Below, piece by piece: positions 42,692-62,853 of a stretch of 64,000 bases of DNA; positions within the stretch are counted from its first letter, which is position 1; every line of letters starts with the position of its first letter. The stretch is from a virus. Its lineage: Duplodnaviria > Heunggongvirae > Uroviricota > Caudoviricetes. The stretch lies in the IMG/VR virus record IMGVR_UViG_2851938318_000001. One strand, 5' to 3'. A program made the position numbers and the translations under genes. The notes beneath the pieces were generated by a model. It did not search any database and was not told the DNA's origin. It saw nothing but the letters and a program-made list of their open reading frames with translations.

Positions 42692-44251
42692 ATGACTGTT
42701 CGGATTGTATCTAACGCAGTAAATGCGCTTATTTCTGGCGCAGATGACAAGGTAAAGCAACTGGTGCAGCAAATGTTGAGCTACGAAGTCGAGACTGGCG
42801 ACTGGAAGGGCACAAGCACGATGTTCAACTGGAGTAAAAACTCGTTCCCTGCTGGCTTTGCCAAGCCTGTAGCAGCGAACTTGAACAAGGCGGGCATCAA
42901 ATGTGTTCATATCCGCAAAGACAAAGCCCCGGCGCTTGGTAAACCAAATCCGGCGGTTAACCCATTCCCATACAATCCTGATTATGCGTATCAGGATCAG
43001 ACTGTGGAAACACTGGTTCGAGAGGGAATGATGATTGCGCAGATCGCTACTGGTGGCGGGAAATCTAATGTTGCCTGCAAAGCAGCTGCACGTATCGGTC
43101 GAATGACATTATTTTTAACAACCCGCTCTGTTCTGATGTTTCAGATGGCCGAAAACTTCCAGAGATCCATCGACTACCGCGCCGAAAATGGCGAACCGTG
43201 GTTAAAAGACCAAAAGGTTGGAGTAATTGGCTCGGGTGAGTTCCAGGTATCACGACATATCAACGTCGCTACAGTTCAAACTCTTGCAAGTTTCCTTGAA
43301 GAACCACCACGCGATGCAACTCCAGATAAGAAAAGCTACCACCTCAAACGTCGGGAGTTGGTGAAACGCTTCCTTTCAAGTGTCTCTCTTCTTATTCTGG
43401 AAGAGGCGCATGAGTCTTCAGGCTCTAATTTCTATGACATTGCCAGATTATGTGCGAACGCAGACTATCGCCTGGCGCTTACGGCAACGCCGTTCATGAA
43501 GGATTCTACGGAAGCCAACATGCGTCTGATGGCTGTAGCCGGGCGAATTGAAATAAAAGTCACGGAAAAGTACCTGATTGATAGAGGAATTCTGGCAAAG
43601 CCATACTTCCTTTATCATAAAGTTGCCTACAAACCGGACGAGGTCAGAATCAAGGCAGAACTTGCTAACAAACACCTCAATTTTAGAGTAGGTATGAGCA
43701 CTGCCTACCAAAAGGCTTATCAGTTGGGGATCGTGTATAATTTGGGACGTAACGAGGCCATTGTGCGCGAAGCATTGCTCTATAAGCAACACTCTCTCAA
43801 CTGCATGACTCTGGTTCGTCTTAAACGCCACGGGCAAATCCTGATGGAGATGATGAAGGAGTCCGGTCTTAGAGTTGACTTCATCTATGGGGAATCGAAC
43901 CAGGCGACAAGGCAAGCAAAGCTGAACAGTTTAGCGTCTGGTGAAATAGATGTTTTAATAGGCTCGACTATTCTGGATGTCGGTGTTGATGTGCCAAGCG
44001 TTGGTGCGGTCATTCTTGCTGGTGGCGGGAAAGCAGAAGTTGAAATGAGACAACGTGTCGGTCGTGGCTTACGAGCCAAGAAGAATCAGGCAAACGTGTG
44101 TTTTATCACTGATTTCATTGACATTAGCAACAAATACCTGTTGTCTCACTCTTATGAGCGAAAACACATCATCGACACTACACCTGGCTTTGCAGAAGGT
44201 GTATTGCCAATTGATGGCACATTCGATTTTGGAGTTCTGAAACGAGATTAG
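42692..44251 (+). CDS. SF2 DEAD/DEAH-box family helicase
   Basis: 519 aa; motif I TGGGKS, motif II LEEAHE, motif III LTATP, motif VI QRVGRGLR; ATG preceded by AAGAGG. Confidence 0.75.
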   Translation: MTVRIVSNAVNALISGADDKVKQLVQQMLSYEVETGDWKGTSTMFNWSKNSFPAGFAKPVAANLNKAGIKCVHIRKDKAPALGKPNPAVNPFPYNPDYAYQDQTVETLVREGMMIAQIATGGGKSNVACKAAARIGRMTLFLTTRSVLMFQMAENFQRSIDYRAENGEPWLKDQKVGVIGSGEFQVSRHINVATVQTLASFLEEPPRDATPDKKSYHLKRRELVKRFLSSVSLLILEEAHESSGSNFYDIARLCANADYRLALTATPFMKDSTEANMRLMAVAGRIEIKVTEKYLIDRGILAKPYFLYHKVAYKPDEVRIKAELANKHLNFRVGMSTAYQKAYQLGIVYNLGRNEAIVREALLYKQHSLNCMTLVRLKRHGQILMEMMKESGLRVDFIYGESNQATRQAKLNSLASGEIDVLIGSTILDVGVDVPSVGAVILAGGGKAEVEMRQRVGRGLRAKKNQANVCFITDFIDISNKYLLSHSYERKHIIDTTPGFAEGVLPIDGTFDFGVLKRD

Positions 44252-44253
44252 TT

Positions 44254-44532
44254 ATGAGCGAAAAGAAAACAACTTATTGCCAAGTGGCATTGTCTGATAA
44301 AGCCAATGAAAAACTTGGAAAATTTCAAATAAAACTCAAAGAGAAAAAAATCAAGATGTCTAAGGCTGAAGTTATCAATGCCATTCTGGAGACGATGACT
44401 ATGGCTGAATTTGACAAAGTCACATCTGCCGTTGGGGTTTCCGCTAAGACGCGTGAGAAAATCATGCGCATCTATGAGAACTCCAATATGACAAAAAAAG
44501 ATCTAGAGGAAATACTGAGCAGGTTGCCGTAA
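44254..44532 (+). CDS. hypothetical small protein
   Basis: 92-aa Lys-rich ORF starting 3 nt after the helicase stop. Confidence 0.4.
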   Translation: MSEKKTTYCQVALSDKANEKLGKFQIKLKEKKIKMSKAEVINAILETMTMAEFDKVTSAVGVSAKTREKIMRIYENSNMTKKDLEEILSRLP

Positions 44533-44597
44533 CATTTCATATTTACCCCCTATCTACTAAATCTATGATGTGCTCACTTGTTAGAAAGGAGCACATC

Positions 44598-45164
44598 ATG
44601 AGTTGGTTAAAAGAATTATCATTTGTTGACACCACTGGCGCTAAGAAAAATCATTCTTTCTGGAAAGTCAGCGATCCTTCTGATTTTCTTGTTGGTGCTA
44701 ATGCTGCTTTTGAATTGCTTAACTTTTATCAACGTTATCCTGAAATGAAACACAGTCCACTCCTGTACAGAATAACAAACGATATGAATAGGTCTGGTTT
44801 ATTATCAAGTGAGTCAGCGAAAGGCTTTTTTAGCAAAATTACGCCTCACATATCATTCGATGCAGCAAACGAAATTGATTATCTATCCACAAAATCTCAA
44901 GAACAATTATCTGTGCCACCTGAGAAAAAAGAAAGACGAATTGCCAGCATTGAAAATATATCGAAAGAGCTTCGCACAACAACGTTGAGGCTGCTGAACT
45001 TTCTTACGCTACTTAATTGGATAGATGATCAAACATTGATTCCATCAACCGATGCGTTGGATAACAGAGTCCTTAGGCTGAACAAAAAATCGCAATTTGG
45101 TTTTGTGTTCACCAAAAAAGGTGAAGATTTAATCAAAAGAAAATATAGATTATTGAATGATTAA
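44598..45164 (+). CDS. hypothetical protein
   Basis: ATG 44598 preceded by AAAGGAG; AT-rich codon usage. Confidence 0.4.
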   Translation: MSWLKELSFVDTTGAKKNHSFWKVSDPSDFLVGANAAFELLNFYQRYPEMKHSPLLYRITNDMNRSGLLSSESAKGFFSKITPHISFDAANEIDYLSTKSQEQLSVPPEKKERRIASIENISKELRTTTLRLLNFLTLLNWIDDQTLIPSTDALDNRVLRLNKKSQFGFVFTKKGEDLIKRKYRLLND

Positions 45165-45549
45165 TAGTCTACATGCAGGTGTATGAGAGCACCTGCATGT
45201 GACATTCATCACATTTTTGAATGTATATACCTTCGGCTGAAAAAAGATCTTGATAGGCTGAATGATATTTGTAGGCTTCGCCTCCGAAGAAATTCGGAGG
45301 ATATATGCGACAATTTATAAAAACGTGTGACCTAAGAAATATAGTAGATGATATTGCATGTGATGAAATTAGCAAAAAAGAGAAGAACAAAAACGCCAAT
45401 TAACGCTATCTACCTATAAATCTGAAGAGTTCAATAGGATACATATCTGAAACACGCCCTCGACAATACCAAAAAGATTTGTCGAGGGCGTCGGGCTTTC
45501 CCTATGTCTGAACGATTAAATTTTACAGCAATTAAATATTTTGTATATG

Positions 45550-46350
45550 TTATTCTTCTGGTGGTACGACAAAATCGTCGAGCTTATTCTTTTCGTCCCG
45601 AAGCAACCTGATTTCTTCTTCTGTTATGCATTTGTCATAATCTGTTTGTTCAGAATGGCACAGCGCAACTGCGAATGGATAGCCGGTGTAAGACAGCCCT
45701 CTAACAGGTTCTAATTCACCGTTGTCTTTTTTCCTAAATTTGTAAAAGTCAGGAGTGTCATAATTGGTGACGCTAACAAGAGCATATTTATCATTTTCTC
45801 TTGCATACACTTCACTAACACCTCTCGATTCTCCCAACTCTCTACTCACATATGTCGAATCACTTGCAGCATCAAACACAGCCTGACCTAATGGAGTTTT
45901 TTTTAAATCATCTATTTTCTCTTTTTCTTTCCTGATTTTAGATTCGTTTTCCAGATAAAGTTTCACACCATTTTCTTTACATGCTAGATTTTGGCGTTCA
46001 AAACGTAATCGTTCACTTGCCGAGTTGGTACTTTTATCCATTGTAACGAATACAATCGGGTTACGTTCACGAACATCAAAGATGTGTGCATTGAATGCGG
46101 TCGCACCTGTATAGGCGTTCAAGACGTTTTTGCCATTCACCTCTCCACATACCATATATGAATAGCTATTTTCACCTAACTGAATAGCTCGCATATTCGT
46201 GAACCGACCAGCATCAGGATCTAGCAGTGTAGAGCGAATATCCTTTTCAACTAGATTTATGACTCGCTCTTCATCAGAATCACAACCTGTTAATAGTAAA
46301 GCCGCTATTAACAATGCTAATGAGTATTTTTTATTCACCCCATTCTTCAT
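45550..46350 (-). CDS. putative lipoprotein
   Basis: 266 aa; signal peptide with lipobox LTGC; shares a domain with the 160..573 lipoprotein. Confidence 0.5.
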   Translation of the reverse strand: MKNGVNKKYSLALLIAALLLTGCDSDEERVINLVEKDIRSTLLDPDAGRFTNMRAIQLGENSYSYMVCGEVNGKNVLNAYTGATAFNAHIFDVRERNPIVFVTMDKSTNSASERLRFERQNLACKENGVKLYLENESKIRKEKEKIDDLKKTPLGQAVFDAASDSTYVSRELGESRGVSEVYARENDKYALVSVTNYDTPDFYKFRKKDNGELEPVRGLSYTGYPFAVALCHSEQTDYDKCITEEEIRLLRDEKNKLDDFVVPPEE

Positions 46351-46452
46351 GAAACTTATTCCATAATCAATTTTTGGTGGAATGTACGGTTAGTCTGTCT
46401 ACGCATCATAGAGATGTATATAATGACCAAAAAAGACTTAAAAAGGTAGACT

Positions 46453-46974
46453 ATGGTTAAAGACATCACCTACGGCATACCGGCTGAAGTCTGGCCGCGA
46501 GACTACGAACATGCTGAAAACATACTTATGTTCTGGCGGAAGAACAACATTCCTGTAAGAGTCACGCTTGAAGACGGTCAGGTGTTTTGCATGTACGTTC
46601 AGGGGACAATGCCTTCCCGCAATAAGCTAGATTTATGCCCGCTTCCATATGATAAAGAAAATCGTATAAGACTCCCACTTGAGCGCATTAGCACAATTGA
46701 ATCAGGTGTAATCGATGGCATTGCTCGCGAGTTCAAAGGTAGGCTAACAATACATCCAGACTATGTTGACAATCAGCCATCACGCCGTGACTTTTTTGCG
46801 ATATGTCGCAAGGCTTATCAAAACGACCAATCTATAAGGGTCTACATGGCAGACGGTCGTGAAATAGAAGGGGTGTCAAGAGGCGTTGATGCTTGCCAGG
46901 TCACTCTTAAGTTAGAAGACGGCAGAAAAATACTTGTTTTCTTCGATTGGGTTGAACGAATCCTTCCTTTTTAA
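46453..46974 (+). CDS. hypothetical protein with an internally duplicated domain
   Basis: 173 aa; two similar halves (IPVRVTLEDGQVF / IRVYMADGREIEGV). Confidence 0.4.
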   Translation: MVKDITYGIPAEVWPRDYEHAENILMFWRKNNIPVRVTLEDGQVFCMYVQGTMPSRNKLDLCPLPYDKENRIRLPLERISTIESGVIDGIAREFKGRLTIHPDYVDNQPSRRDFFAICRKAYQNDQSIRVYMADGREIEGVSRGVDACQVTLKLEDGRKILVFFDWVERILPF

Positions 46975-47269
46975 ATCTATAAGGGTAATAACCGGCTAAG
47001 TCCGGTTATTATTTTACATGCCATTCATTTAAAACTCTTTCAATGCTACGCTGTATAAATATATAAGGTTAAAAGCCTGAATTGATTATTTATTTAGGGA
47101 ACACCTTCGACGATCTCGCTTTTATTTCTAGGACTTTCATCCCTGCAAAAAATTTAAAAAAAACACTTGCAATCTTTTTTCACGTATCGATAATTGAACT
47201 CGTCGAAAGCGAGCTAGCTAACGACAGTAAAAAATAAATTCATTTTAATTTTTCGTAAGGATGTCCATC

Positions 47270-47920
47270 ATGGCTAACATTATCATTTCTAAAAAATCCA
47301 TCATTGAAGCTGCTTCCATTGTATCCGATGAACTGCGCGAAAAAGCAGATCTGGCAACTCAAACATATAACGAACATTATAAAAATGGTACGCACACTAA
47401 AGCAGACAAAGCAAATATGCAAGCTGCGACCACTAAACTTGCTTACTTCATCAACAACGTTGTAAACGCTGTTGAAGACGAAAAATTATGCTCTGTTTTC
47501 TACTATGCAATTAAAGCAAGCAAACAAGCGCCAGAAGTATTTTTCCGTGATGCAATGACTAATAGTTATTCACTGGAAAAACTGGTTTATCTGGTTAAAT
47601 CCATTAAAGCTGGTAAATGTGTTTATTCCGTCGCTGATATGTCAGGATCTCGTGTATTCGCTTTAATCGATATGATTAACGACGAGATCGACACGTTCAC
47701 CAATGGCGCTGTTTTCGATTTAATGAATGAAGCTAAAAAAGCGTGTGAAATTAAATTGGACGCTGGATATACTCAAGCCAACCAGTTGATCAATCTTTGC
47801 GAACGTCTCGGACTTGTTGAAAAAGTCAAAGGAGCTGGGAGCGCCAAAGCTGGTACGCAGCAATATCGCTTCATTAAAAATGATTTCTACAATTATTTAG
47901 CTGATGCTTTCAAAGCGTAA
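47270..47920 (+). CDS. hypothetical protein
   Basis: Start placed at second ATG (47270), 9 nt after TAAGGA; hairpin gcgcccactttgggcgc follows the stop. Confidence 0.4.
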   Translation: MANIIISKKSIIEAASIVSDELREKADLATQTYNEHYKNGTHTKADKANMQAATTKLAYFINNVVNAVEDEKLCSVFYYAIKASKQAPEVFFRDAMTNSYSLEKLVYLVKSIKAGKCVYSVADMSGSRVFALIDMINDEIDTFTNGAVFDLMNEAKKACEIKLDAGYTQANQLINLCERLGLVEKVKGAGSAKAGTQQYRFIKNDFYNYLADAFKA

Positions 47921-47942
47921 TTAATGGAATCAAGCGCCCACT

Positions 47943-48173
47943 TTGGGCGCTTTAAAGGAGCTTTCAAAAATGGTCAGCTATGACAAGATCCGCGCGGAAT
48001 ATCGCGCAAAGTATCGCGCTTATAAACTGGAATTAATCGATGATTTGATCGCGCAACGCGACCAATTAAATTTTACGTTTTCTGATTTGCTTAACAGTAA
48101 ACGAGATTGTAAGCGTAAACGTGAATATTTACGTTTAAGCGCATTAATCGGAAAACTGCAAAATTCTATTTAA
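47943..48173 (+). CDS. hypothetical small basic protein
   Basis: 76-aa ORF, Arg/Lys-rich. Confidence 0.35.
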   Translation: MGALKELSKMVSYDKIRAEYRAKYRAYKLELIDDLIAQRDQLNFTFSDLLNSKRDCKRKREYLRLSALIGKLQNSI

Positions 48174-48736: not shown

Positions 48737-49020
48737 TTTTTCACATAATCACACCACTTAATCACGTATGTGATTACGCTACGAAAGAAATCTGGATGTC
48801 TCAGGCGACGAAAGTCATCATAATTTTCCCCGCTCGCCTGTCCGACAACCGCTGGTTGGATTCCACCAGCTTCCCGATGTTTTTTCTACACAAAGGCGAA
48901 TGCAGCCGTTTCCCGAAAAAATCCTGGCCGTTCCCCGTCGGCTCATGAATACGTTCCTCGCCGTTTCTGAAAATTTCCCTGCGGCAGCTGGTGGCTATAG
49001 AGAAAGGGCCGTTTCTGGCC
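48737..49020. repeat. iteron-like direct repeat cluster 1 with a DnaA-box-like site
   Basis: GCCGTT(T)CC cores at 48905, 48927, 48960 and 49008 (22-, 33-, 48-bp steps); TTTTTCACA at 48737..48745. Confidence 0.5.
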
Positions 49021-49030
49021 CTCTTCTCAG

Positions 49031-49513
49031 TTACACGCCATCAAGGATGTGGATGCGGTTGCTTGCGTATACATTCAGCATAAAGTTAGCGCAAAACAGT
49101 TTCCATGTGTCAACGCCAGCGGTATACGTAATATTTTTGCATTTAATTGCATTGTTGGCGATCCGCATCCCCTGCGATACTGCTTCATCGTCGGAAAATT
49201 TGAACGACGATTGAGTTTTAATCCAGACAGAAATCTGCGTAGCGAACTCAATCAGCTTGGACTGGCAGAATCGCCCGGAGCGCACCGGAAAGACGAACGT
49301 TCCGAATCCAGAATTTACCACATACGCTTTCTCAAATACCCGCGAGTAACGACGATTACCAATGATGTCACGTGCAATAATGCATTTTTCTTGTGCTGAC
49401 AGTTCTACCGTCTCATTGTCGCGCCATGCACCAAGTACTCGTTTTTCAATGTCAGAGAACGTTACAGCGATATTGCCATGTGCGGGTGCGTTTACAGTAG
49501 CGATAAAATTCAT
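49031..49513 (-). CDS. hypothetical protein (early small-gene array)
   Basis: 160-aa ORF; conserved AAACAA-N-TTGTTTTCTT element at 49535..49570 upstream. Confidence 0.45.
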   Translation of the reverse strand: MNFIATVNAPAHGNIAVTFSDIEKRVLGAWRDNETVELSAQEKCIIARDIIGNRRYSRVFEKAYVVNSGFGTFVFPVRSGRFCQSKLIEFATQISVWIKTQSSFKFSDDEAVSQGMRIANNAIKCKNITYTAGVDTWKLFCANFMLNVYASNRIHILDGV

Positions 49514-49717
49514 GATTAATTCCTTATCGTAAATAACAAATTGTTTTCTTGTTGTTGTTAATTATCGCTGTACGAATAAGGCGTCAAAGTTGAAAACTAC
49601 GGTAGCCGGACGGGAACAGGTGGGTTTGTCGGTTGCCTGGAGGTAAGAGGTTGGTGTTTTTAGCCTGCGGGAAACAAGATGGTCATTTAAGGCCACCAGC
49701 ATTGGTGGCCTTATTCT

Positions 49718-49999
49718 TTAGTGGAGTAGAGCGATGTCGATGGTATCCCCTGAATCATCCACACGGATCATCAGCATGGCGAAGGCGTTTAGTGGATAAC
49801 TGGCGTGCCATTCAGGGAAGCGGTCATCTCGCATGAAGTCAGCAATGTCGTAAACGCAGCCCTCAAAGTGGAAGAATCGCGTGCTTACCTGCTCGTCATA
49901 ATCCACATGATCCATTTCTTGCTGTTCTGTTTCCGGCAAGTCCAGCCATGATTCGAGGAATACATTTTGTGCTTTGGTGGTAATGGTGAAATCAGTCAT
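49718..49999 (-). CDS. hypothetical small protein (array member)
   Basis: Start at second Met (49999), 7 nt after AGGA; N-terminal 19 codons lie in a 57-bp repeat shared with 50482..50540. Confidence 0.45.
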   Translation of the reverse strand: MTDFTITTKAQNVFLESWLDLPETEQQEMDHVDYDEQVSTRFFHFEGCVYDIADFMRDDRFPEWHASYPLNAFAMLMIRVDDSGDTIDIALLH

Positions 50000-50191
50000 G
50001 AGCATATCCTAACTGCGTAAACATGTTGTTTTCTTGTTGGTGTAATTATCGCAGTGTAGATAAGGCATAAAAGAAGTTAATACAGGCTGAATACGCAAGA
50101 AAGGTTCTGGAAGTTGATAGCTAGGTTTCAAACTAACCTTCGGTTATTAAAAGTCATTTAAGGCCACCAGCGTTAACTGGTGGCCTATATC

Positions 50192-50455
50192 TCATTGCTT
50201 TCGATGTGCTGCAACGAACTCTTTCAACGTTTCTAGCGCATGATAAAGACCGACGATATTTGAGCCGTAGTCGATGCAAACAGGGGAAAGTGATGTCTTC
50301 CCGTCGTGCGATGAATATGCCGATGTGGTAGTTGCAGGGTAATCGTGGCGATAGCAAACCGCAGTTTTTGGGTGTCGCAGATACGCTATCCCTCTTTCAA
50401 GATCATAAATTGCGCGTCGCAGGTCATGCTCCTGCGCTCTGGTCAATTTTGCCAT
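50192..50455 (-). CDS. hypothetical small protein (array member)
   Basis: About 87 aa from Met 50455. Confidence 0.4.
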   Translation of the reverse strand: MAKLTRAQEHDLRRAIYDLERGIAYLRHPKTAVCYRHDYPATTTSAYSSHDGKTSLSPVCIDYGSNIVGLYHALETLKEFVAAHRKQ

Positions 50456-50469
50456 CGTAATACTCTCAC

Positions 50470-50730
50470 TTAATGCGGCAAAGCCAGCCATGATTCGAGG
50501 AATACATTTTGTGCTTTTGGGGTAATGGTGAAATCAGTCATCGTGCCCCCCATCTCCTGCAACTGTGCAACGGTGATATCTGGACACAGCCCGTCGATCC
50601 ACACCCACACGTCAATGATGCTGTCACCGGCTTCAAAATGGTGAAATGCGCGCTCAAGCTGCTGATTGTTATCCACAGGCTCATTTGCTAGCTGCGCCCA
50701 GATTTGCTGGACTTGAGTAATAGTTTTCAT
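50470..50730 (-). CDS. hypothetical small protein, apparently chimeric
   Basis: 86 aa; last 24 codons (TMTDFTITPKAQNVFLESWLALPH) are a copy of the N-terminus of the 49718..49999 product; SD AGAGGA upstream. Confidence 0.45.
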   Translation of the reverse strand: MKTITQVQQIWAQLANEPVDNNQQLERAFHHFEAGDSIIDVWVWIDGLCPDITVAQLQEMGGTMTDFTITPKAQNVFLESWLALPH

Positions 50731-50843
50731 CTGCTTTCCTCTTGTTTTCTTGTTGTTGTAATTATCGAAGTTTAGATAAGGCAGAAAATAAATTGTTATC
50801 GGGCATAAGAAAATGGCGCGGTTTACGCGCCATTCAAAGAGGA

Positions 50844-51239
50844 TTAAGCGAATACGCTTTCAGGGATTAAGGTGTCGGCAGGAATGCCAGAGGTAATGCG
50901 CAGGCCGTACTGACCAATCCAGGTGGTGCTGGTGTTCAGGCTGGAGGTGAATACGGAATTAACCATACTCATCATGGTTTCAAACACCTCTTCATCAACC
51001 TGGCGGAAGTAGTTCTCGATTTTCAGCAGCAGTGGGTCAGTTGCATCGAGAATGGACTGGTATTGAGTCGCGTACTCGCCGCCGGAGGCATCACCTTTAC
51101 GCACGATCGTACTGGCCTGGACTTCGGCACCAGTTTCGGTGTTGTACGTAACAACGGTGATTTTTGCCACATTCTTACCTTCGGCAGTTTCAGAGGCATA
51201 GTAAACATCAACTGTCAGTTTTTCGCGTTTAACGGTCAT
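50844..51239 (-). CDS. hypothetical protein
   Basis: 131-aa ORF; palindromic motif gtaggtatgtacttac at 51283..51298 upstream. Confidence 0.4.
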   Translation of the reverse strand: MTVKREKLTVDVYYASETAEGKNVAKITVVTYNTETGAEVQASTIVRKGDASGGEYATQYQSILDATDPLLLKIENYFRQVDEEVFETMMSMVNSVFTSSLNTSTTWIGQYGLRITSGIPADTLIPESVFA

Positions 51240-51365
51240 TTCACTCTCCGTAGTGTATTGGTTATTTTTCTATTTTATAGTCGTAGGTATGTACTTACAA
51301 TACAAAAAAGCCCCGTAAGGATGGCGGGGCTGTCGTACTGTCGACTAATTACCACTTGCACATTA

Positions 51366-51707
51366 TCAGGCTATTGCCATCACTGATGCTCTCTGAATTT
51401 CTTGCTGGGCCACGCGGTTAACTTCCATCAAAGCCAGTTCGAGCTGATGTTCCGGCCACATTCTTTGAAATGCCACCCAGCCTTTTCCACGCTGGCGGCG
51501 AACATTCATTACATAACGAGTAAAGGTGTTTTTATCGAAAGACACCGCGGTTTCACGGAACAGACGAATAGAGGTTCCATTGGCAACGATGTCCAGCAAA
51601 GTTAATTGAGCAACCAGTGCAGGCTTCTCTTTTCTCTTCTGGTCTTTGTCCAGACCAAGAACCAATGATTTTTTCATCACAACTCCGTAAACAACTTGTT
51701 TTCTCAA
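51366..51707 (-). CDS. hypothetical basic protein
   Basis: 113-aa ORF; conserved upstream element at about 51700..51720. Confidence 0.35.
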   Translation of the reverse strand: MRKQVVYGVVMKKSLVLGLDKDQKRKEKPALVAQLTLLDIVANGTSIRLFRETAVSFDKNTFTRYVMNVRRQRGKGWVAFQRMWPEHQLELALMEVNRVAQQEIQRASVMAIA

Positions 51708-51830
51708 TGGCGTAAATAATACCAGTAAGAAAACGGCTACAAAGCATATTGATCAGGTGCATGAGCGATATGCAGGTTCTTCCCTGCGGCTACAGATTAA
51801 GTTAAGCCAGCAATGCTGGCTTAGATTGGT

Positions 51831-52181
51831 TTACGCGAATACCTCAAGAAACTCCTGAACGTCCCAATGCTGGACGAGGTGAAGATAGACCTTAGAAATC
51901 ACGTCATTCTCGCTATCGCATGTGAAGTAGTACTTCTGGCTGCGGTTGTATGTGTCCACACAAAATTCGCTCATATCCATAAAGTCAGCATCTTCACCCA
52001 GGTCGCAAATCATCAAAGCAGGTGCGTCATCACGAGTCATCAGCTCAAGCACCCACCGCGAATTGATCAGAGTGGAAGACCAACCTTCTAACTCATAAAA
52101 CTGATCAAACTCTTTTTGAGTTAATTTCTTGATTTGGTTGATGTCGATATGTGCAAACATAAAGCAATCCTTAAACAACAT
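51831..52181 (-). CDS. hypothetical acidic protein
   Basis: 116-aa ORF; conserved upstream element at 52176..52210. Confidence 0.4.
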   Translation of the reverse strand: MLFKDCFMFAHIDINQIKKLTQKEFDQFYELEGWSSTLINSRWVLELMTRDDAPALMICDLGEDADFMDMSEFCVDTYNRSQKYYFTCDSENDVISKVYLHLVQHWDVQEFLEVFA

Positions 52182-52334
52182 GTTTTCTTGTTGGTGTTAT
52201 TATCGTAATAACGCACAGGCGAAAAAGGATTTTATTCCGGTGAATGTGGTTTTGGCAGTGAGTTTTCAGGTTCAGTACCGAGTACACTTTTTACATTATT
52301 CTGATTTAGTGGCCGAAGGTGGCTGGTGGACAGA

Positions 52335-52652
52335 ATAATCCTCTCCCCGAAAACCTACTGAAATCGATTGTGACCCGCTGACTGTCTGGCACAATTACGC
52401 TGTAGCTGGGCATTCAGAGGGAATCCAGCGGTAAGCAAGTCCGCCTGCACGTGAGCGCCTCTCTTCTTCCCGCACATTGCAGGTGGGTAGCCGCAACTCT
52501 CCCTCTCGCTATACCGGTACGCCGCCGTTCCTGAACCGGCATTGAGCCTTTTCCCGAAATCCACACAGGCAACTCGACCGTTTCCCTGAAAACCTCCAGC
52601 CGTTCCCAAAGGCAACCCAGCCGTTTCTGTAGCGGGATGCAGCCTTTCCCCT
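52335..52652. repeat. iteron-like direct repeat cluster 2
   Basis: GCCGTT/GCCTTT cores at 52524, 52546, 52578, 52599, 52620 and 52642 (mostly 21-22-bp steps); related ctccccgaaaacc at 52335. Confidence 0.55.
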
Positions 52653-52789
52653 GTATGGACCGAAGGCTGACCGTAGGGGTGTTACGGGGGATAAAATCAG
52701 GAGTTGAATAAATACGAAAAAGGAGGCGACCCCCCTCCTTCCCTCCCCACTTATACATACCTGGCTTCTTCGCTATACATGTTGTGTTT

Positions 52790-53560
52790 TCTTCGTGTTT
52801 TATCTGTCTCAACCTCTCTATAGGCGTTAATGCTCACACCTTCCAGAACGTTCTATACGGCGACTAATTCTGTTGGTGAATTGGGTGTGTTGTTCTCTCT
52901 GTCGGTGTAAATGGTTTCGTTAGTTTTGCGGTGGTTCTTCTGTGGGATGTTCTCGTCGTTTTGGTGATTGTTCTTCTCCGTGTATGGAGTAAAGGCAGGT
53001 GGGCGATTCCTTTCGTTATTGTGTTTGAGTTGTTTGTCTGGAGTGTGTGAAGGGCTTTTGTAGTTATTCGTGTATTGGGTAATGGCGTTTCCCGTGATTG
53101 TTATGTTTCGTGTCTTTTGGGATTGAGAGAATCCTTGCGGTTACAGGCTTCGTTGGGGTTTCAGTGATTCTGGTGTTTCTTCGCTGTTTGGGTAATGGCG
53201 TGTCGTGGGTATCGCGCGTATGGAAGTTTCGAATTGCCTGTGAAAGTTAGGTTGGTTGTCCGGTAGCCTGCCATAAAGAGGTTGGTTGTTTTTGGAATGG
53301 CATATGTGTTATTTGGTTGTTTTGTTATACCTGAAAATAAGTTGTTTATATGGTTGTGTAACGCAACGGGAGCGATTTTGAGCGTGTGTTTTTGTTGGTA
53401 GTGTGTTTGGTCGTCTGTGGTGAAAATTGGACGCTGTGGCGCTGTCTGCTGCGTAGAATTACGGGTATAAGCAGTGATGTGTGAAAACGTCAATTTTTTA
53501 GACCAAATCGGGTGAAAGCGTTGATGTTTCGTTGATCTGTTATTCAGTTGTTTTCTTATT
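52790..53560. other. ORF-free GT-skewed tract (candidate non-coding RNA or origin-associated region)
   Basis: About 770 bp rich in G and T on the plus strand with short degenerate repeats (gggtaatggcgt twice; ggttggttgt several times); bounded by upstream-element-like sequences at 52787..52815 and 53536..53560. Confidence 0.4.
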
Positions 53561-53690
53561 GGTATAAACAACTATAACCTATTGATATTTAAGGATGTGA
53601 TTGCAGGTATAGAATGGGGGTAGTGGCGATCAACGGATTCTTATAGAAAAGAATCAAATTGTGACCGCCATTATCAATGAGTTGCAACCG

Positions 53691-54635: not shown

Positions 54636-54944
54636 TTACCATTGCCAGCACTCTAGCCCTTCAACGACCGGTGCACCACAATCAAAATGTACAGAGTCAA
54701 AGCCTACATCAAGTACTTTCTGAATGTTCGCAATCGCGCCCTCGGATATACCATATCGACGCAACTCATCTTTCCAGTCATCGTCCTGTAACCCAGCGTG
54801 GACAATGCAACCGTACTCAATTTGTGAAACCCAATCCAGCTCATTGCTTGCGATCATGAATCGGCGAGCATCTTCCTCTGATGTATGAGATGAGCTGATC
54901 AATGCCACCTGGTAGGCTTGGGTAATGTTCAACATTTCAACCAC
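54636..54944 (-). CDS. hypothetical small acidic protein
   Basis: 102-aa ORF; conserved upstream element at 54950..55010. Confidence 0.4.
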   Translation of the reverse strand: MVEMLNITQAYQVALISSSHTSEEDARRFMIASNELDWVSQIEYGCIVHAGLQDDDWKDELRRYGISEGAIANIQKVLDVGFDSVHFDCGAPVVEGLECWQW

Positions 54945-55042
54945 TCCAAAACAAGTTGTTTTCTTATGTGGTTTATTATCTCCATCAACAAAAGGCAGAA
55001 AACAAATTGTTTTAGGTACTGTGTAAATCAGAAGGGATTGTG

Positions 55043-55096: not shown

Positions 55097-57130
55097 TTAC
55101 TTAACCTGGTGGCCAGGTTTAGCACCAGCATCCGGGCTTAACAGGAAGATATCTTTCCCGCCGGGGCCAGCAGCCATCACCATGCCTTCAGAGATACCGA
55201 AGCGCATTTTACGTGGTGCCAGGTTAGCCACCATAATGGTGTGACGACCAATCAGTGCCTGTGGATCTGGATAAGCGGAACGGATGCCTGAGAAGACATT
55301 ACGCTTTTCACCACCGAGATCCAGCGTCAGGCGAAGCAGTTTGTCAGAACCTTCTACAAACTCTGCGTTTTCAATCAGCGCCACGCGCAGGTCAACTTTG
55401 GCGAAGTCGTCAAAGGTGATAGTTTCCTGAATCGGGTCGTCAGCCAGTGGGCCAGTTACCGGTGCGGCTGTGGCTTTCACTTCTTCTTTGGATGCTTCCA
55501 CCAGTGCTTCAACCTGCTTCATATCGATGCGGTTATACAGTGCCTTGAACGGATTCACTTTATGGCCCAGCAGCGGTTGCTGGATACCATCCCAGGTCAG
55601 TTCTGTATTCAGGAATGCTTCTGCACGTTCAGTCAGTTTCGGCAGTACCGGCTTCAGGTACGTCATCAGCACGCGGAACAGGTTAATGCCCATAGAGCAA
55701 ATCGCCTGCAGATCGGCATCGCGTCCTTCCTGCTTCGCCACCACCCACGGAGCCTGTTCATCGACATAGCGGTTAGCCAGGTCAGCCAATGCCATGATTT
55801 CACGGATAGCTTTACCAAATTCGCGGCTTTCCCACGCTTCACCAATCACTTCAGCGGCATCAGTGAAGGTTTTGTACAACTGCGGGTCAGCCAATTCGCT
55901 TGCCAGCACGCCGTCAAAACGCTTGTTGATAAAGCCCGCATTACGAGAGGCCAGGTTAACCACTTTGTTCACGATATCGGCATTCACGCGCTGAACGAAA
56001 TCCTCCAGGTTGAGATCGATATCATCAATGCGCGAAGAGAGTTTCGCAGTGTAGTAGTAACGCAGGCTGTCGGCGTCAAAATGATTCAGCCAGGTGCTGG
56101 CTTTAATAAAGGTGCCGCGAGACTTGGACATCTTCGCGCCGTTCACCGTCACATAGCCGTGAACAAACAGGTTGGTCGGCTTGCGGAAGTTGCTGCCTTC
56201 CAGCATGGCAGGCCAGAACAGGCTGTGGAAGTAAACAATATCTTTACCGATGAAGTGGTACAGCTCGGCGGTGGAGTCTTTCTTCCAGTATTCATCGAAG
56301 CTGGAGGTGTCGCCGCGTTTGTCGCACAGATTCTTGAAGGAACCCATGTAGCCAATCGGCGCGTCCAGCCAGACGTAGAAATATTTGCCCGGTGCGTTCG
56401 GAATTTCAAAACCGAAGTACGGCGCATCGCGGGAGATATCCCACTGTTGCAGACCAGATTCAAACCACTCCTGCATTTTGTTTGCCACCTGCTCCTGCAA
56501 CGCACCGCTGCGGGTCCATGCCTGCAACATTTCGCTGAAAGAAGGCAGATCAAAGAAGAAGTGTTCGGAATCACGCATTACCGGCGTAGCACCAGAAACT
56601 ACCGATTTCGGCTCGATCAGTTCAGTAGGGCTGTATGTCGCGCCGCAGACTTCACAGTTATCGCCGTATTGATCCGGCGCTTTACATTTCGGGCATGTGC
56701 CTTTCACAAAACGGTCCGGCAGGAACATGCCTTTTTCCGGGTCGTACAGCTGAGAGATGGTGCGGTTTTTAATAAAACCGTTCTCTTTCAGGCGAGTATA
56801 GATAAGCTCGGACAACTGACGGTTCTCTTCGCTGTGCGTCGAGTGATAGTTGTCATAGCTGATGTTAAAGCCTGCAAAATCAGTCTGGTGTTCCTGACTC
56901 ATTTCGCCAATCATCTGTTCCGGTGTGATACCAAGCTGCTGTGCTTTCAGCATGATCGGTGTGCCGTGGGCATCGTCGGCACAGATGAAATTAACCTCGT
57001 GGCCGCGCATTCGCTGGTAACGAACCCAGACATCAGCCTGGATGTGCTCCAGCATATGGCCGAGGTGGATTGAGCCGTTAGCGTACGGCAGCGCGCACGT
57101 CACCAGAATTTTCTTCGCGACTTGGGTCAT
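55097..57130 (-). CDS. metG: methionyl-tRNA synthetase
   Basis: 677 aa from [26 protein letters not shown] (HIGH motif), KMSKS motif present; the 720-aa track ORF has an N-terminal extension upstream of the real start. Confidence 0.95.
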
Positions 57131-57287
57131 AGTAGGCATTACTTCTTTGTAGTGAAAAGGGGCTTGATAGTAACAAAATGGCCTTATGTCTGCCATGTGA
57201 TAACAGCATTTCTCATAAATGATTAAATGCCGTAGCTGGAGTACACTACAAGGCGACAATTGCGCAAATTAAAATAAAGGAGACGGG

Positions 57288-58388
57288 ATGAGCGAGTCCA
57301 AATCGCCGGATGCCCTGAGAGCAATGGTAGCCGGTACGCTGGCTAATTTTCAGCACCCAACCCTGAAACACAATCTGACTACGCTTAAAGCGTTACACCA
57401 TGTTGCGTTGATGGATGACACACTGCATGTCGAACTAATCATGCCTTTCGTGTGGAATAAGCCTTTTGAAGACCTGAAAGAGCAATGTAGTGGTGATCTG
57501 CTCCGTATCACTGGCGCAAAGGCTATTGACTGGAAGCTGTCGTACAACATTGCCACGCTTAAGCGCGTCAAAAACCAACCAGGCATTAATGGCGTGAAGA
57601 ACATTATCGCCGTCAGCTCAGGCAAGGGCGGCGTTGGTAAATCCTCCACGGCGGTAAACCTGGCACTGGCGTTGGCTGCTGAAGGTGCGAAAGTTGGTAT
57701 TTTGGATGCCGATATCTACGGGCCATCAATTCCAACCATGCTTGGCGCGGAAAACCAACGTCCAACCTCACCGGACGGTACTCACATGGCACCGATTATG
57801 TCTCATGGACTGGCAACCAATTCAATTGGTTATCTGGTAACTGACGACAATGCGATGGTGTGGCGTGGTCCGATGGCGAGCAAGGCGTTAATGCAGATGT
57901 TGCAGGAAACTCTATGGCCTGATCTGGACTATCTCGTTCTCGATATGCCGCCGGGTACTGGTGATATTCAGCTGACGCTGGCGCAGAACATTCCTGTAAC
58001 TGGTGCTGTTGTGGTAACTACGCCGCAAGATATCGCGCTGATCGATGCGAAGAAAGGCATTGTGATGTTCGAAAAAGTCGAAGTGCCGGTACTGGGTATC
58101 GTCGAAAACATGAGTGTGCATATTTGCAGTAACTGCGGTCATCACGAGCCAATTTTTGGCACCGGTGGCGCACAGAAGCTGGCCGAGAAATACAACACGC
58201 AGTTGTTAGGCCAAATGCCACTTCATATCTCTCTTCGTGAAGATCTGGATAACGGAACACCAACCGTTATTAGTCGTCCAGATAGCGAATTTACGGCTAT
58301 TTATCGTGACCTCGCAGATCGCGTTGCTGCCCAAATGTATTGGCAAGGTGAAGTAATACCTGGCGAAATCGCATTCCGCGCAGTGTGA
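57288..58388 (+). CDS. apbC: iron-sulfur cluster carrier ATPase Mrp/ApbC
   Basis: 366 aa; deviant Walker A SGKGGVGKSS; CxxC near the C-terminus; divergent from metG as in E. coli. Confidence 0.9.
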   Translation: MSESKSPDALRAMVAGTLANFQHPTLKHNLTTLKALHHVALMDDTLHVELIMPFVWNKPFEDLKEQCSGDLLRITGAKAIDWKLSYNIATLKRVKNQPGINGVKNIIAVSSGKGGVGKSSTAVNLALALAAEGAKVGILDADIYGPSIPTMLGAENQRPTSPDGTHMAPIMSHGLATNSIGYLVTDDNAMVWRGPMASKALMQMLQETLWPDLDYLVLDMPPGTGDIQLTLAQNIPVTGAVVVTTPQDIALIDAKKGIVMFEKVEVPVLGIVENMSVHICSNCGHHEPIFGTGGAQKLAEKYNTQLLGQMPLHISLREDLDNGTPTVISRPDSEFTAIYRDLADRVAAQMYWQGEVIPGEIAFRAV

Positions 58389-58414
58389 TAAAAAGGTGGT
58401 GCAATGCACCACCT
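58389..58414 (-). terminator. rho-independent terminator after the UmuD'-like gene
   Basis: Hairpin aggtggtgca-t-tgcaccacct followed on the minus strand by TTTTTAT. Confidence 0.5.
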
Positions 58415-62715: not shown

Positions 62716-62853
62716 GTGTTTTTCTCTTCTTTGCTGTTACATAAGCACTACCAAGTGCTGGTTTATTTTCACAAATAAGAAAAGGTAGAAAACAATTTAT
62801 TTAAGGCCATAAGTTATGGCCTTTATTTATTCATGCAGAAGGATTTGTAGCGC

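Follow-up and report, generated by a model that had tools for sequence, protein, structure and literature searches.

What kind of locus is formed by the seven small genes that lie between positions 49,031 and 52,181 of IMG/VR record IMGVR_UViG_2851938318_000001, a tailed-phage sequence (Caudoviricetes) analysed here over a stretch of 64,000 nucleotides (the window), and how did it come by a direct repeat that places the beginning of one gene at the end of another? A first-pass annotation of the sequence had proposed recombination between cassettes of the kind seen in islands of anti-defence or takeover genes. The analysis reported here indicates that the interval is probably an accessory array of single-gene transcription units in a phage-plasmid of the SSU5/Cyrano type, built on a shared promoter-leader module and an end hairpin, with cassettes exchanged between related elements.

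The interval corresponds to Escherichia coli RM9131 plasmid pRM9131-1 (NZ_CP028430.1, 117 kb; 100% match), and Escherichia phage Cyrano (pLF82) matches it at 97%. Approximately 600 plasmid records in PLSDB, roughly 100–112 kb in length, match at lower identity; they come from Escherichia, Klebsiella, Yersinia, Enterobacter and Salmonella, in which SSU5-like phage-plasmids are common and their accessory genes almost entirely uncharacterised. The remaining genes of the window encode terminase, portal, capsid and tail proteins, together with two ParB-like proteins, a helicase, a methionyl-tRNA synthetase (MetRS) and an S24 peptidase. These matches and this gene content therefore identify the element as an SSU5/Cyrano-type phage-plasmid. 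Cyrano itself is inducible by ciprofloxacin and yields siphovirus particles (PMC9928086). Literature searches, within the papers available, returned no earlier description of the array or of its promoter module in SSU5-like elements.

Promoter-leader modules and hairpins

All seven minus-strand open reading frames (ORFs) listed in the first-pass annotation were found, spanning positions 49,031–52,160 (Table 1). The conserved upstream element that it had placed before most of them is present at five of the seven (ORF1, ORF2, ORF4, ORF6 and ORF7). This module is ∼60 nt long and consists of TGnGATAAT followed by CAACAAGAAAACAAnnTGTTTA. Its core, TTGTTTTCTTGTTG, was matched 8 times at ≤2 mismatches against 1.1 expected, a count reached in none of 100 shuffles. 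A profile built from the five copies detected one more independent copy (E = 2e-7; Table 1) and otherwise only weak matches in the 64 kb. The two remaining genes differ: ORF5 has another promoter-like site, TTGTAA-17-TAAAAT at 51300–51272, and ORF3, which directly follows ORF4, is predicted to be co-transcribed with it.

Across 39 distinct copies from the window and nine relatives, the consensus is cTTTtnnGCC...tGcGATAATtACacCAacAAGAAAACAAgtTGTT. The strongest conservation falls on GATAAT (or TATTAT), mostly preceded by TGn, and on AAGAAAACAA with TGTT. GATAAT has the TG dinucleotide ahead of it in P2 and P6 among the window's copies and in most of those from relatives, and a Shine-Dalgarno sequence and ATG lie 25–45 nt downstream. 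Within the conserved block, most copies contain a 13-bp palindrome, AAACAAnTTGTTT, of which P3-type copies have the left half alone. Relative to SSU5, module identity is 0.81–0.90, compared with 0.68–0.81 for the adjacent coding sequences. These features suggest an extended −10 promoter for the host sigma-70 RNA polymerase, with a weak −35. The transcript would start near CAACAAG, and the invariant block would form the first ∼22 nt of the messenger RNA, ahead of the Shine-Dalgarno sequence and ATG.

An exact-pattern scan of IMG/VR returned 74 stretches, 56 of them with array genes; of the remaining 18, several come from the same ∼100-kb contigs. Some contigs carry modules in regions without array genes, which suggests further arrays elsewhere in those genomes. 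Modules and genes are also found in other pairings: in NZ_MT773672.1 (hereafter L003) an extra 71-amino acid (aa) cassette takes a P7-type module (L003 6392–6449), and ORF7 there has a P6-like one.

The hairpins described after several genes proved to be stable at all six transcription-unit ends (z −2.7 to −5.3), with small coordinate corrections, and the related hairpin reported far from the array, at 62806–62826, also exists. T1 and T2, the two ‘aaggccaccag’ hairpins, have flanks that are 85–95% identical. A clear U-tract follows only the ORF5 and ORF6 hairpins. A scan of 47.5–54.5 kb against Rfam at a relaxed threshold gave no family, the sub-threshold chance hits being confined to terminators at 48.4 kb.

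Table 1. Genes, promoter-leader modules, hairpins and repeat copies of the array (window coordinates).
Feature	Position	Strand	Description
ORF1	49031..49513	-	160 aa, basic (isoelectric point, pI, 9.2), phrog_1641; last gene of the array, in all SSU5-like relatives
ORF2	49718..49999	-	93 aa, very acidic (net -15, pI 4.1), phrog_1845
ORF3	50192..50455	-	87 aa, no PHROG match; without its own module, directly after ORF4
ORF4	50470..50730	-	86-aa chimera: phrog_24588-type residues 1-63 and ORF2 stub residues 64-86
ORF5	50844..51239	-	131 aa, acidic, phrog_2473
ORF6	51366..51677	-	103 aa, basic (pI 10.5), phrog_5125; kept across genera
ORF7	51831..52160	-	109 aa, very acidic (net -13), phrog_7645
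P1 module	49532..49590	-	TTGACG, GATAAT, then CAACAAGAAAACAATTTGTTA; breakpoint of the L075 mosaic at upstream edge
P2 module	50013..50075	-	TGCGATAAT, extended -10
P3 module	50736..50791	-	breakpoint with Cyrano/L004-type elements inside, after GCCTTATCT
P6 module	51683..51746	-	TGGTATTAT, extended -10; perfect palindrome AAACAAGTTGTTT
P7 module	52168..52229	-	promoter-leader copy upstream of ORF7
Extra module copy	54948..55002	-	outside the array interval, upstream of a 99-aa gene (54636-54935)
ORF1 hairpin	49000..49028	-	terminator-like, then UUUCUCU (weaker U-tract); -19.3 kcal/mol, z -3.4
T1 hairpin	49688..49713	-	5 nt past the ORF2 stop, 11-bp stem; -19.2 kcal/mol, z ∼-5.2
T2 hairpin	50161..50186	-	after ORF3, near-copy of T1, 11-bp stem; -20.9 kcal/mol, z ∼-5.2
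ORF5 hairpin	50811..50835	-	then UUUUCUU, canonical intrinsic-terminator shape
ORF6 hairpin	51309..51331	-	then UUUUUUG, canonical terminator shape
ORF7 hairpin	51803..51823	-	no U-tract
Repeat copy A	49934..49999	-	codons 1-22, 5' end of intact ORF2
Repeat copy B	50476..50541	-	22-codon stub of an ORF2 copy, ends ...ALPH*
G6 run	50546..50551	- (C6 on + strand)	joins the 63-aa gene and the stub into one frame; L003 has G5

The direct repeat, the chimeric gene and the variable slot

The direct repeat is real and longer than first described, at 66 nt rather than 57, with 62 of 66 positions identical (94%; BLAST E = 3e-23). It encodes, as had been noted, the beginning of ORF2 (here residues 1–22) and, in frame, the end of ORF4 (residues 64–85). 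The ORF2 start at 49999 agrees with the full-length PHROG profile, and the short start of ORF3 agrees with its homologues. Profile matches divide ORF4 in two: residues 9–57 match phrog_24588 and residues 64–85 match the first 22 positions of phrog_1845. ORF4 is thus a genuine chimera, and it is a 63-aa gene (ORF4N) with a 22-codon ORF2 stub attached rather than a clean domain swap. In L003, the corresponding sequence GAGATGGGGGCACGATGACT encodes two genes, with the 63-aa gene ending ...EMGAR* and its TGA overlapping the ATG of MTDFTIT (an ATGA overlap). The window, NZ_CP027369.1 (L005) and three independent short-read assemblies, L014, L016 and L017 (contigs from SRR6212928, SRR20643102 and SRR27904687), have one extra G, giving ...EMGGTMTDFTIT... 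in a single frame.

The stub reads TTCCTT in those three assemblies and TTCCTC in the window, the latter being the same as in the window's own ORF2 copy. This is compatible with gene conversion between the repeat copies, which is not claimed from a single-nucleotide polymorphism. Paralogy of the 63-aa gene with ORF2 was also considered; the signal, one 16-residue match with a pairwise E of 0.002, was too weak. Another relative, L011, carries an independent fusion in the same slot (P0044, 98 aa, L011 5001–5297), in which a phrog_24588 gene is joined to the C-terminal 38 residues of an ORF2-family protein.

Modules, hairpins and gene order are conserved across elements from Escherichia, Salmonella and Klebsiella. 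The order ORF6-ORF5-ORF2-ORF1 is kept in Salmonella SSU5 and in Klebsiella pJN2-26 and ST13-OXA48phi12.3, at 35–82% amino acid identity, and at 90% clustering the ORF1, ORF2 and ORF5 families occur almost only on Enterobacterales contigs of ∼100–112 kb. ORF7 belongs to the Escherichia lineage; SSU5 and the Klebsiella relatives lack it. Since four genes stand in the same order in three genera, the array is partly backbone and not a free island, and only certain slots vary. The first-pass annotation had regarded its island reading as incompatible with genes that are conserved structural or replication proteins in related phages; the genes are indeed conserved in relatives, and none is recognisable as a structural or replication protein.

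Comparison of array content across relatives revealed at least eight arrangements in the slot between ORF5 and ORF1. SSU5 has ORF2 followed by a reverse-strand repressor-like gene, pJN2-26 has ORF2 followed by a 58-aa gene, and L011 has the P0044 fusion followed by a 58-aa gene. In L005 the phrog_24588 gene is fused in frame to full ORF2. L003 carries the 63-aa phrog_24588 gene, the stub and ORF3, with no ORF2. NZ_CP075058.1 (L004) has a 124-aa gene, T2, P2, the stub and ORF3, and Cyrano and L006 (a Cyrano-type layout) have 136-aa and 47-aa genes, T2, P2 and ORF2. The window, with the 63-aa gene joined to the stub, then ORF3, T2, P2 and ORF2, combines the L003 layout on the ORF5 side with the L006/Cyrano layout on the ORF1 side.

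Genes have been gained, lost and replaced by other alleles between these relatives, with end points in short shared sequences. Relative to L003, the window has an extra segment (49712–50152) between the T1 and T2 hairpins, and relative to L005 one (50000–50475) flanked by the 66-nt repeat copies. In comparison with Cyrano, L004 and L006, junctions fall at T2 (50186) and in P3 directly past GCCTTATCT (50774); the indel of the ORF2 cassette that separates the window from L003 and L004 has its junction at T1. Three IMG/VR mosaics (L075, L082 and L050) share ORF1, ORF6 and ORF7 with the window at ∼100% identity, compared with 77% for ORF2 and 35% for ORF5, and switch in the ORF5 promoter region (51276–51284) and at the upstream edge of P1 (∼49567–49590). 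The proposal of cassette recombination is therefore well supported, with junctions in shared promoter modules, in hairpins or in the 66-nt repeat.

A plausible history of the repeat can be drawn from these layouts. An ancestral ORF3 may have taken the place of the body of one ORF2 copy, leaving the 22-codon stub, and the resulting stub-ORF3 unit would have been located downstream of the 63-aa gene. That unit could later have been joined beside an intact P2-ORF2 cassette through a junction at T1/T2, creating the 66-nt repeat. An extra G in the G-run would have fused the 63-aa gene to the stub, producing the 86-aa ORF4.

Expression, products and rival readings

Published data on Cyrano provide a view of the array in a relative. 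Its genes CYRAN_105, 106, 107, 110 and 111 are the orthologues of ORF7, ORF6, ORF5, ORF2 and ORF1, and in strain LF82 grown overnight in LB, transcripts of CYRAN_105–108, 110 and 111 were at 0.6–2.6× the prophage background (Table S1 of PMC9928086). Transcripts of the Cyrano array rise several-fold in macrophages (PMC9928086). The LB values fit with an array whose genes are mostly silent while the element resides as a plasmid.

The sharing of one promoter family by all module-bearing cassettes implies co-regulation. The module would then define one co-regulated set, near-silent in the plasmid and switched on at induction or infection, with the conserved leader or its palindrome probably serving as an operator. 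The same repeats would double as homology for cassette exchange between co-resident relatives, comparable to the promoter-early stem-loop (PeSL) elements of T4-type phages. As to function, the small products might target the host at an early stage, in takeover, establishment or counter-defence for instance; a role in counter-defence specifically is doubtful. A more elaborate proposal, which we consider unlikely, is that the invariant AAGAAAACAA and palindrome are the operator, in DNA or in the 5' untranslated region (UTR), of a dedicated regulator that silences a regulon of ∼8–10 ORFan genes until entry or induction, and that the acidic ORF7 product and the ORF2/phrog_1845 superfamily are new counter-defence or takeover proteins. 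Candidates for the regulator are the basic ORF6 product, a possible DNA-binding protein, and the FljA-like protein encoded next to the array (see below).

Several points weigh against an array of co-regulated, single-gene transcription units with module-directed exchange. A simple two-hexamer scan for sigma-70 promoters misses the modules, because their −35 is weak, and finds 6 promoter-like sites in the sequence against 10 in shuffles. Transcript starts and terminators, in this element and in every relative, are predictions from sequence alone. No coding-strand U-tract follows T1, T2 or the ORF7 hairpin; instead of terminating transcription, these three may attenuate it or stabilise the RNA end. 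Stub and ORF3 meet within the ORF2 reading frame, in coding sequence and not in a module, and at least one step must therefore have been illegitimate recombination. The sample of breakpoints is small, at about eight junctions. Lastly, many Cyrano genes rise in macrophages and not the array alone, and the expression data are from a relative in LF82 (PMC9928086).

The homologues of three products bear on what the array might do. The ORF2 profile recovered 147 representative clusters of proteins of ∼90–100 aa, and all 47 of the 47 scanned match phrog_1845; no relation of this superfamily to Pfam or PDB entries was found. Virulent phages that infect Edwardsiella, Vibrio, Pseudomonas, Marinobacter and Rhodococcus also have members; in three such phages (Vibrio VH-8, Pseudomonas UAntarctica and Rhodococcus NiceHouse) the gene lies 2.5–4.2 kb from one end of the record. 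IncA/C-like conjugative plasmids carry homologues of ORF3 (42% identity) at a distance of 8.5 kb from mobI; their neighbours are small genes on the same strand, a hok/flmC toxin-antitoxin pair and an S-adenosylmethionine (SAM) methyltransferase gene. Homologues of ORF4N occur in conjugative plasmids of Legionella and Halomonas. Settings of this kind would agree with an early role linked to entry. Two annotations in RefSeq deserve mention: ORF2 is named an ‘ABC transporter’, a label that no profile backs and that has spread to dozens of records, and ORF3 is unannotated in the record, though conserved and with homologues in other plasmids.

The anti-defence island proposed in the first-pass annotation would consist of inhibitors of restriction, CRISPR or abortive infection that are made at once on DNA entry and turn over in an arms race. 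The genes are small, orphan and individually promoted, and ORF2, ORF7 and ORF4 (net charge −8 for the last) encode strongly acidic products. Known DNA-mimic inhibitors such as Ocr and ArdA are acidic. The low expression of the Cyrano orthologues in the plasmid state, the virulent-phage members of the ORF2 superfamily near record ends, and the homologues of ORF3 and ORF4N in conjugative plasmids point the same way. Against this, searches of Pfam, NCBIfam, PADLOC and PDB, of the kind suggested as a check in the first-pass annotation, assigned no family, defence model or solved structure to any product, and none of the known anti-defence, anti-CRISPR (Acr)-associated or defence-related families was matched. 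PDB sequence searches with five products (ORF1, ORF2, ORF5, ORF6 and ORF7) and two family profiles returned nothing credible. Structure models, likewise suggested, matched no solved PDB fold for ORF1 or ORF5, and for ORF1 none in BFVD either. Weak matches of ORF5 to CARF-domain proteins (E 0.02–0.05) were rejected, as its predicted beta-meander topology contradicts them and it has neither the Rossmann-like alternating beta-alpha fold nor the significant profile match expected of CARF. In addition, no aca-like helix-turn-helix gene was recognised in the array, and four of its genes are in conserved order across three genera, unlike typical fast-turnover islands. An anti-defence island is thus conceivable and, on this evidence, doubtful. 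A match of ORF7 to multicystatin (E 1e-4) was taken as compositional; no stretch passes alone.

A second possibility is that the cassettes are lysogenic-conversion morons, whose expression from the resident plasmid-prophage would benefit the host or aid plasmid maintenance. The promoter-gene-hairpin layout is that by which morons are defined, and array transcripts increase in macrophages, where virion production was not detected. The corresponding slot of Cyrano also holds a 47-aa gene, CYRAN_109, that the window lacks; at 6× background it passed the 5-fold cut-off and was classified as a moron (PMC9928086). The Cyrano orthologues of ORF1, ORF2, ORF5, ORF6 and ORF7 all fall under that cut-off, and cassette G+C content (0.44–0.52) is not distinct from that of the backbone at 0.47–0.49 (window 0.47, structural module 0.49), so that we regard morons as quite improbable.

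An integron-like, site-specific system, in which the hairpins are sites of a dedicated recombinase, would explain the cassette-like layout, the hairpin after each gene and the near-identity of T1 and T2. The annotation shows no integrase or recombinase gene for ∼8 kb to the left or right, however, and the hairpins are short perfect stems of 9–11 bp placed right after stop codons and differing between cassettes. No RNA or DNA family was matched at a relaxed threshold, and junctions also fall in promoters and inside ORF2, which fits homologous exchange rather than one defined site. This explanation is very improbable.

That the repeat and the ORF4-ORF3-ORF2 layout arose from mis-joined reads of two related plasmids, with G6 as a homopolymer error, is barely credible: the full arrangement occurs in only one of 72,556 PLSDB plasmids, namely the source record itself, and the ORF4 fusion hangs on one homopolymer base, but the repeat copies differ at 4 of 66 positions, the exact 86-aa ORF4 protein is found on 12 contigs, and the three short-read assemblies introduced above are colinear with the window over their own lengths, carry G6 and differ from it by 1.7–2.2%. 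Both repeat copies are present in L014, which spans the whole array, and in L017; L016 ends just past the ORF3 stop. A layout shared by three independent assemblies ∼2% apart is therefore no assembly artefact, and the duplication during assembly that the first-pass annotation had named as a possible explanation of the repeat is excluded.

Flanking sequences and comparison with known systems

The sequences around the array have features of their own. To its left, positions 44000–48000 have a low G+C content (0.38–0.39 versus ∼0.47–0.49 elsewhere) and span plus-strand genes. One gene on the plus strand (46453–46974), annotated as ‘repressor of phase-1 flagellin’ (FljA-like), adjoins the array in all relatives examined, and the Pfam domain Flag1_repress was found in its L011 orthologue. 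FljA acts on the 5' UTR of a messenger RNA, which makes the FljA-like protein a candidate for binding the conserved leader. Farther right, a full-length methionyl-tRNA synthetase gene (metG) and an ApbC/MinD-like ATPase gene (∼55097–58400) lie beside that for the S24 LexA-like peptidase, which in Cyrano is strongly induced in macrophages.

Two iteron-like clusters of GCCGTTYCC (48905–49016 and 52524–52650, plus strand) flank the array in the same orientation, with ∼21–22-bp spacing. The motif occurs 11 times on the plus strand of the 64 kb, with 9 of these inside the two clusters, versus 2 on the minus strand. The same bracketing, with 22-bp spacing, is present in SSU5, two Klebsiella relatives and L011. 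The interval enclosed by the clusters contains no replication initiator gene; conceivable roles for the clusters are those of an origin or of a site for partition or copy control. Beyond ORF7, ∼1.5 kb (52200–53690) is without an annotated gene; its minus strand is 41% A and 31% C from 52850 to 53560, a strong strand asymmetry. This region holds two degenerate promoter modules (52785 and 53548) and a strong terminator-like hairpin (52716–52741). It also includes a block (52669–52755) with 84% identity to Klebsiella pJN2-26, in surroundings of ∼65–70%; within that block is a DnaA-box-like TTATCCCCC. An empty cassette, a non-coding RNA and an origin are all conceivable readings of the region. A small RNA running from the degenerate module at 52785 to the terminator at 52716–52741 was considered and dropped, the promoter part being unconserved in SSU5 and the Klebsiella relatives.

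The array provides a compact putative regulon, with one promoter-leader family and a clear invariant core, together with a recombination hot slot for which natural variants are available. If some of its products do counter host defences, the ORF2 superfamily would be a broad new family.

Four described systems invite comparison. With integron arrays, the locus shares a linear series of small promoter-proximal cassettes, each followed by a hairpin; it differs in having no integrase or attC-type imperfect palindromes, in a promoter for every cassette, and in junctions at several kinds of site.

Morons of lambdoid and other temperate phages were reportedly described by Juhala et al. in 2000. Like them, the array places a single gene between its own promoter and a hairpin, and some relatives have, while others lack, the ORF3, ORF4N, ORF2 and ORF7 cassettes between neighbours that are conserved. 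Morons are usually expressed from a repressed prophage and often have a distinct composition, whereas the Cyrano orthologues are near background in lysogens, the G+C content of the cassettes is backbone-like, and here one promoter family is common to the module-bearing cassettes. The moron concept is used operationally in PMC9928086.

The leading regions of conjugative plasmids are said to carry anti-defence genes (Samuel et al., in 2024). With such clusters the array has in common same-strand runs of small, often acidic ORFans that are probably early, and homologues of ORF3 and ORF4N in conjugative plasmids. It differs from them in that no known anti-defence gene, Aca-type regulator or single-stranded DNA promoter was identified, so that its membership would be by architecture only. 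For anti-defence gene clusters of phages and of conjugative plasmid leading regions, see Pinilla-Redondo et al. 2020 (PMC7648647).

The nearest described phenomenon is the PeSL-mediated modular shuffling of T4-type phages, which the array may resemble in its workings without being a member. In those phages, the ORFans of hyperplastic regions are flanked by repeats of early-promoter and stem-loop motifs, at which recombination takes place (Arbiol et al. 2010, PMC2839356; Comeau et al. 2014, PMC4122927). Common to both are a repeated sigma-70-type promoter motif and stem-loops between small ORFans in a plastic region, and indel or replacement end points that fall, between close relatives, in the repeated regulatory sequences. 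In both, the repeats would supply expression signals as well as homology for shuffling, a dual role that for the array is predicted from sequence; promoter and terminator activity and excised mini-circles are features of PeSLs. The array differs in residing in a temperate, siphovirus-type phage-plasmid rather than a virulent T4-like myovirus, in showing no sequence similarity to PeSLs, and in a promoter of the extended −10 type with a weak −35. Its highest conservation lies in the first ∼22 nt of the predicted transcript, palindrome included, and T1 and T2 are separate from the next module, 80–100 nt upstream of it, whereas the PeSL stem-loop is part of a ∼100-bp composite. Four of the array genes, moreover, are stably syntenic across genera. 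Taken together, the array is an orderly case of known phage mosaicism, with no new mechanism, and it extends regulatory-repeat-driven cassette shuffling, so far described in T4-type virulent phages, to temperate phage-plasmids.

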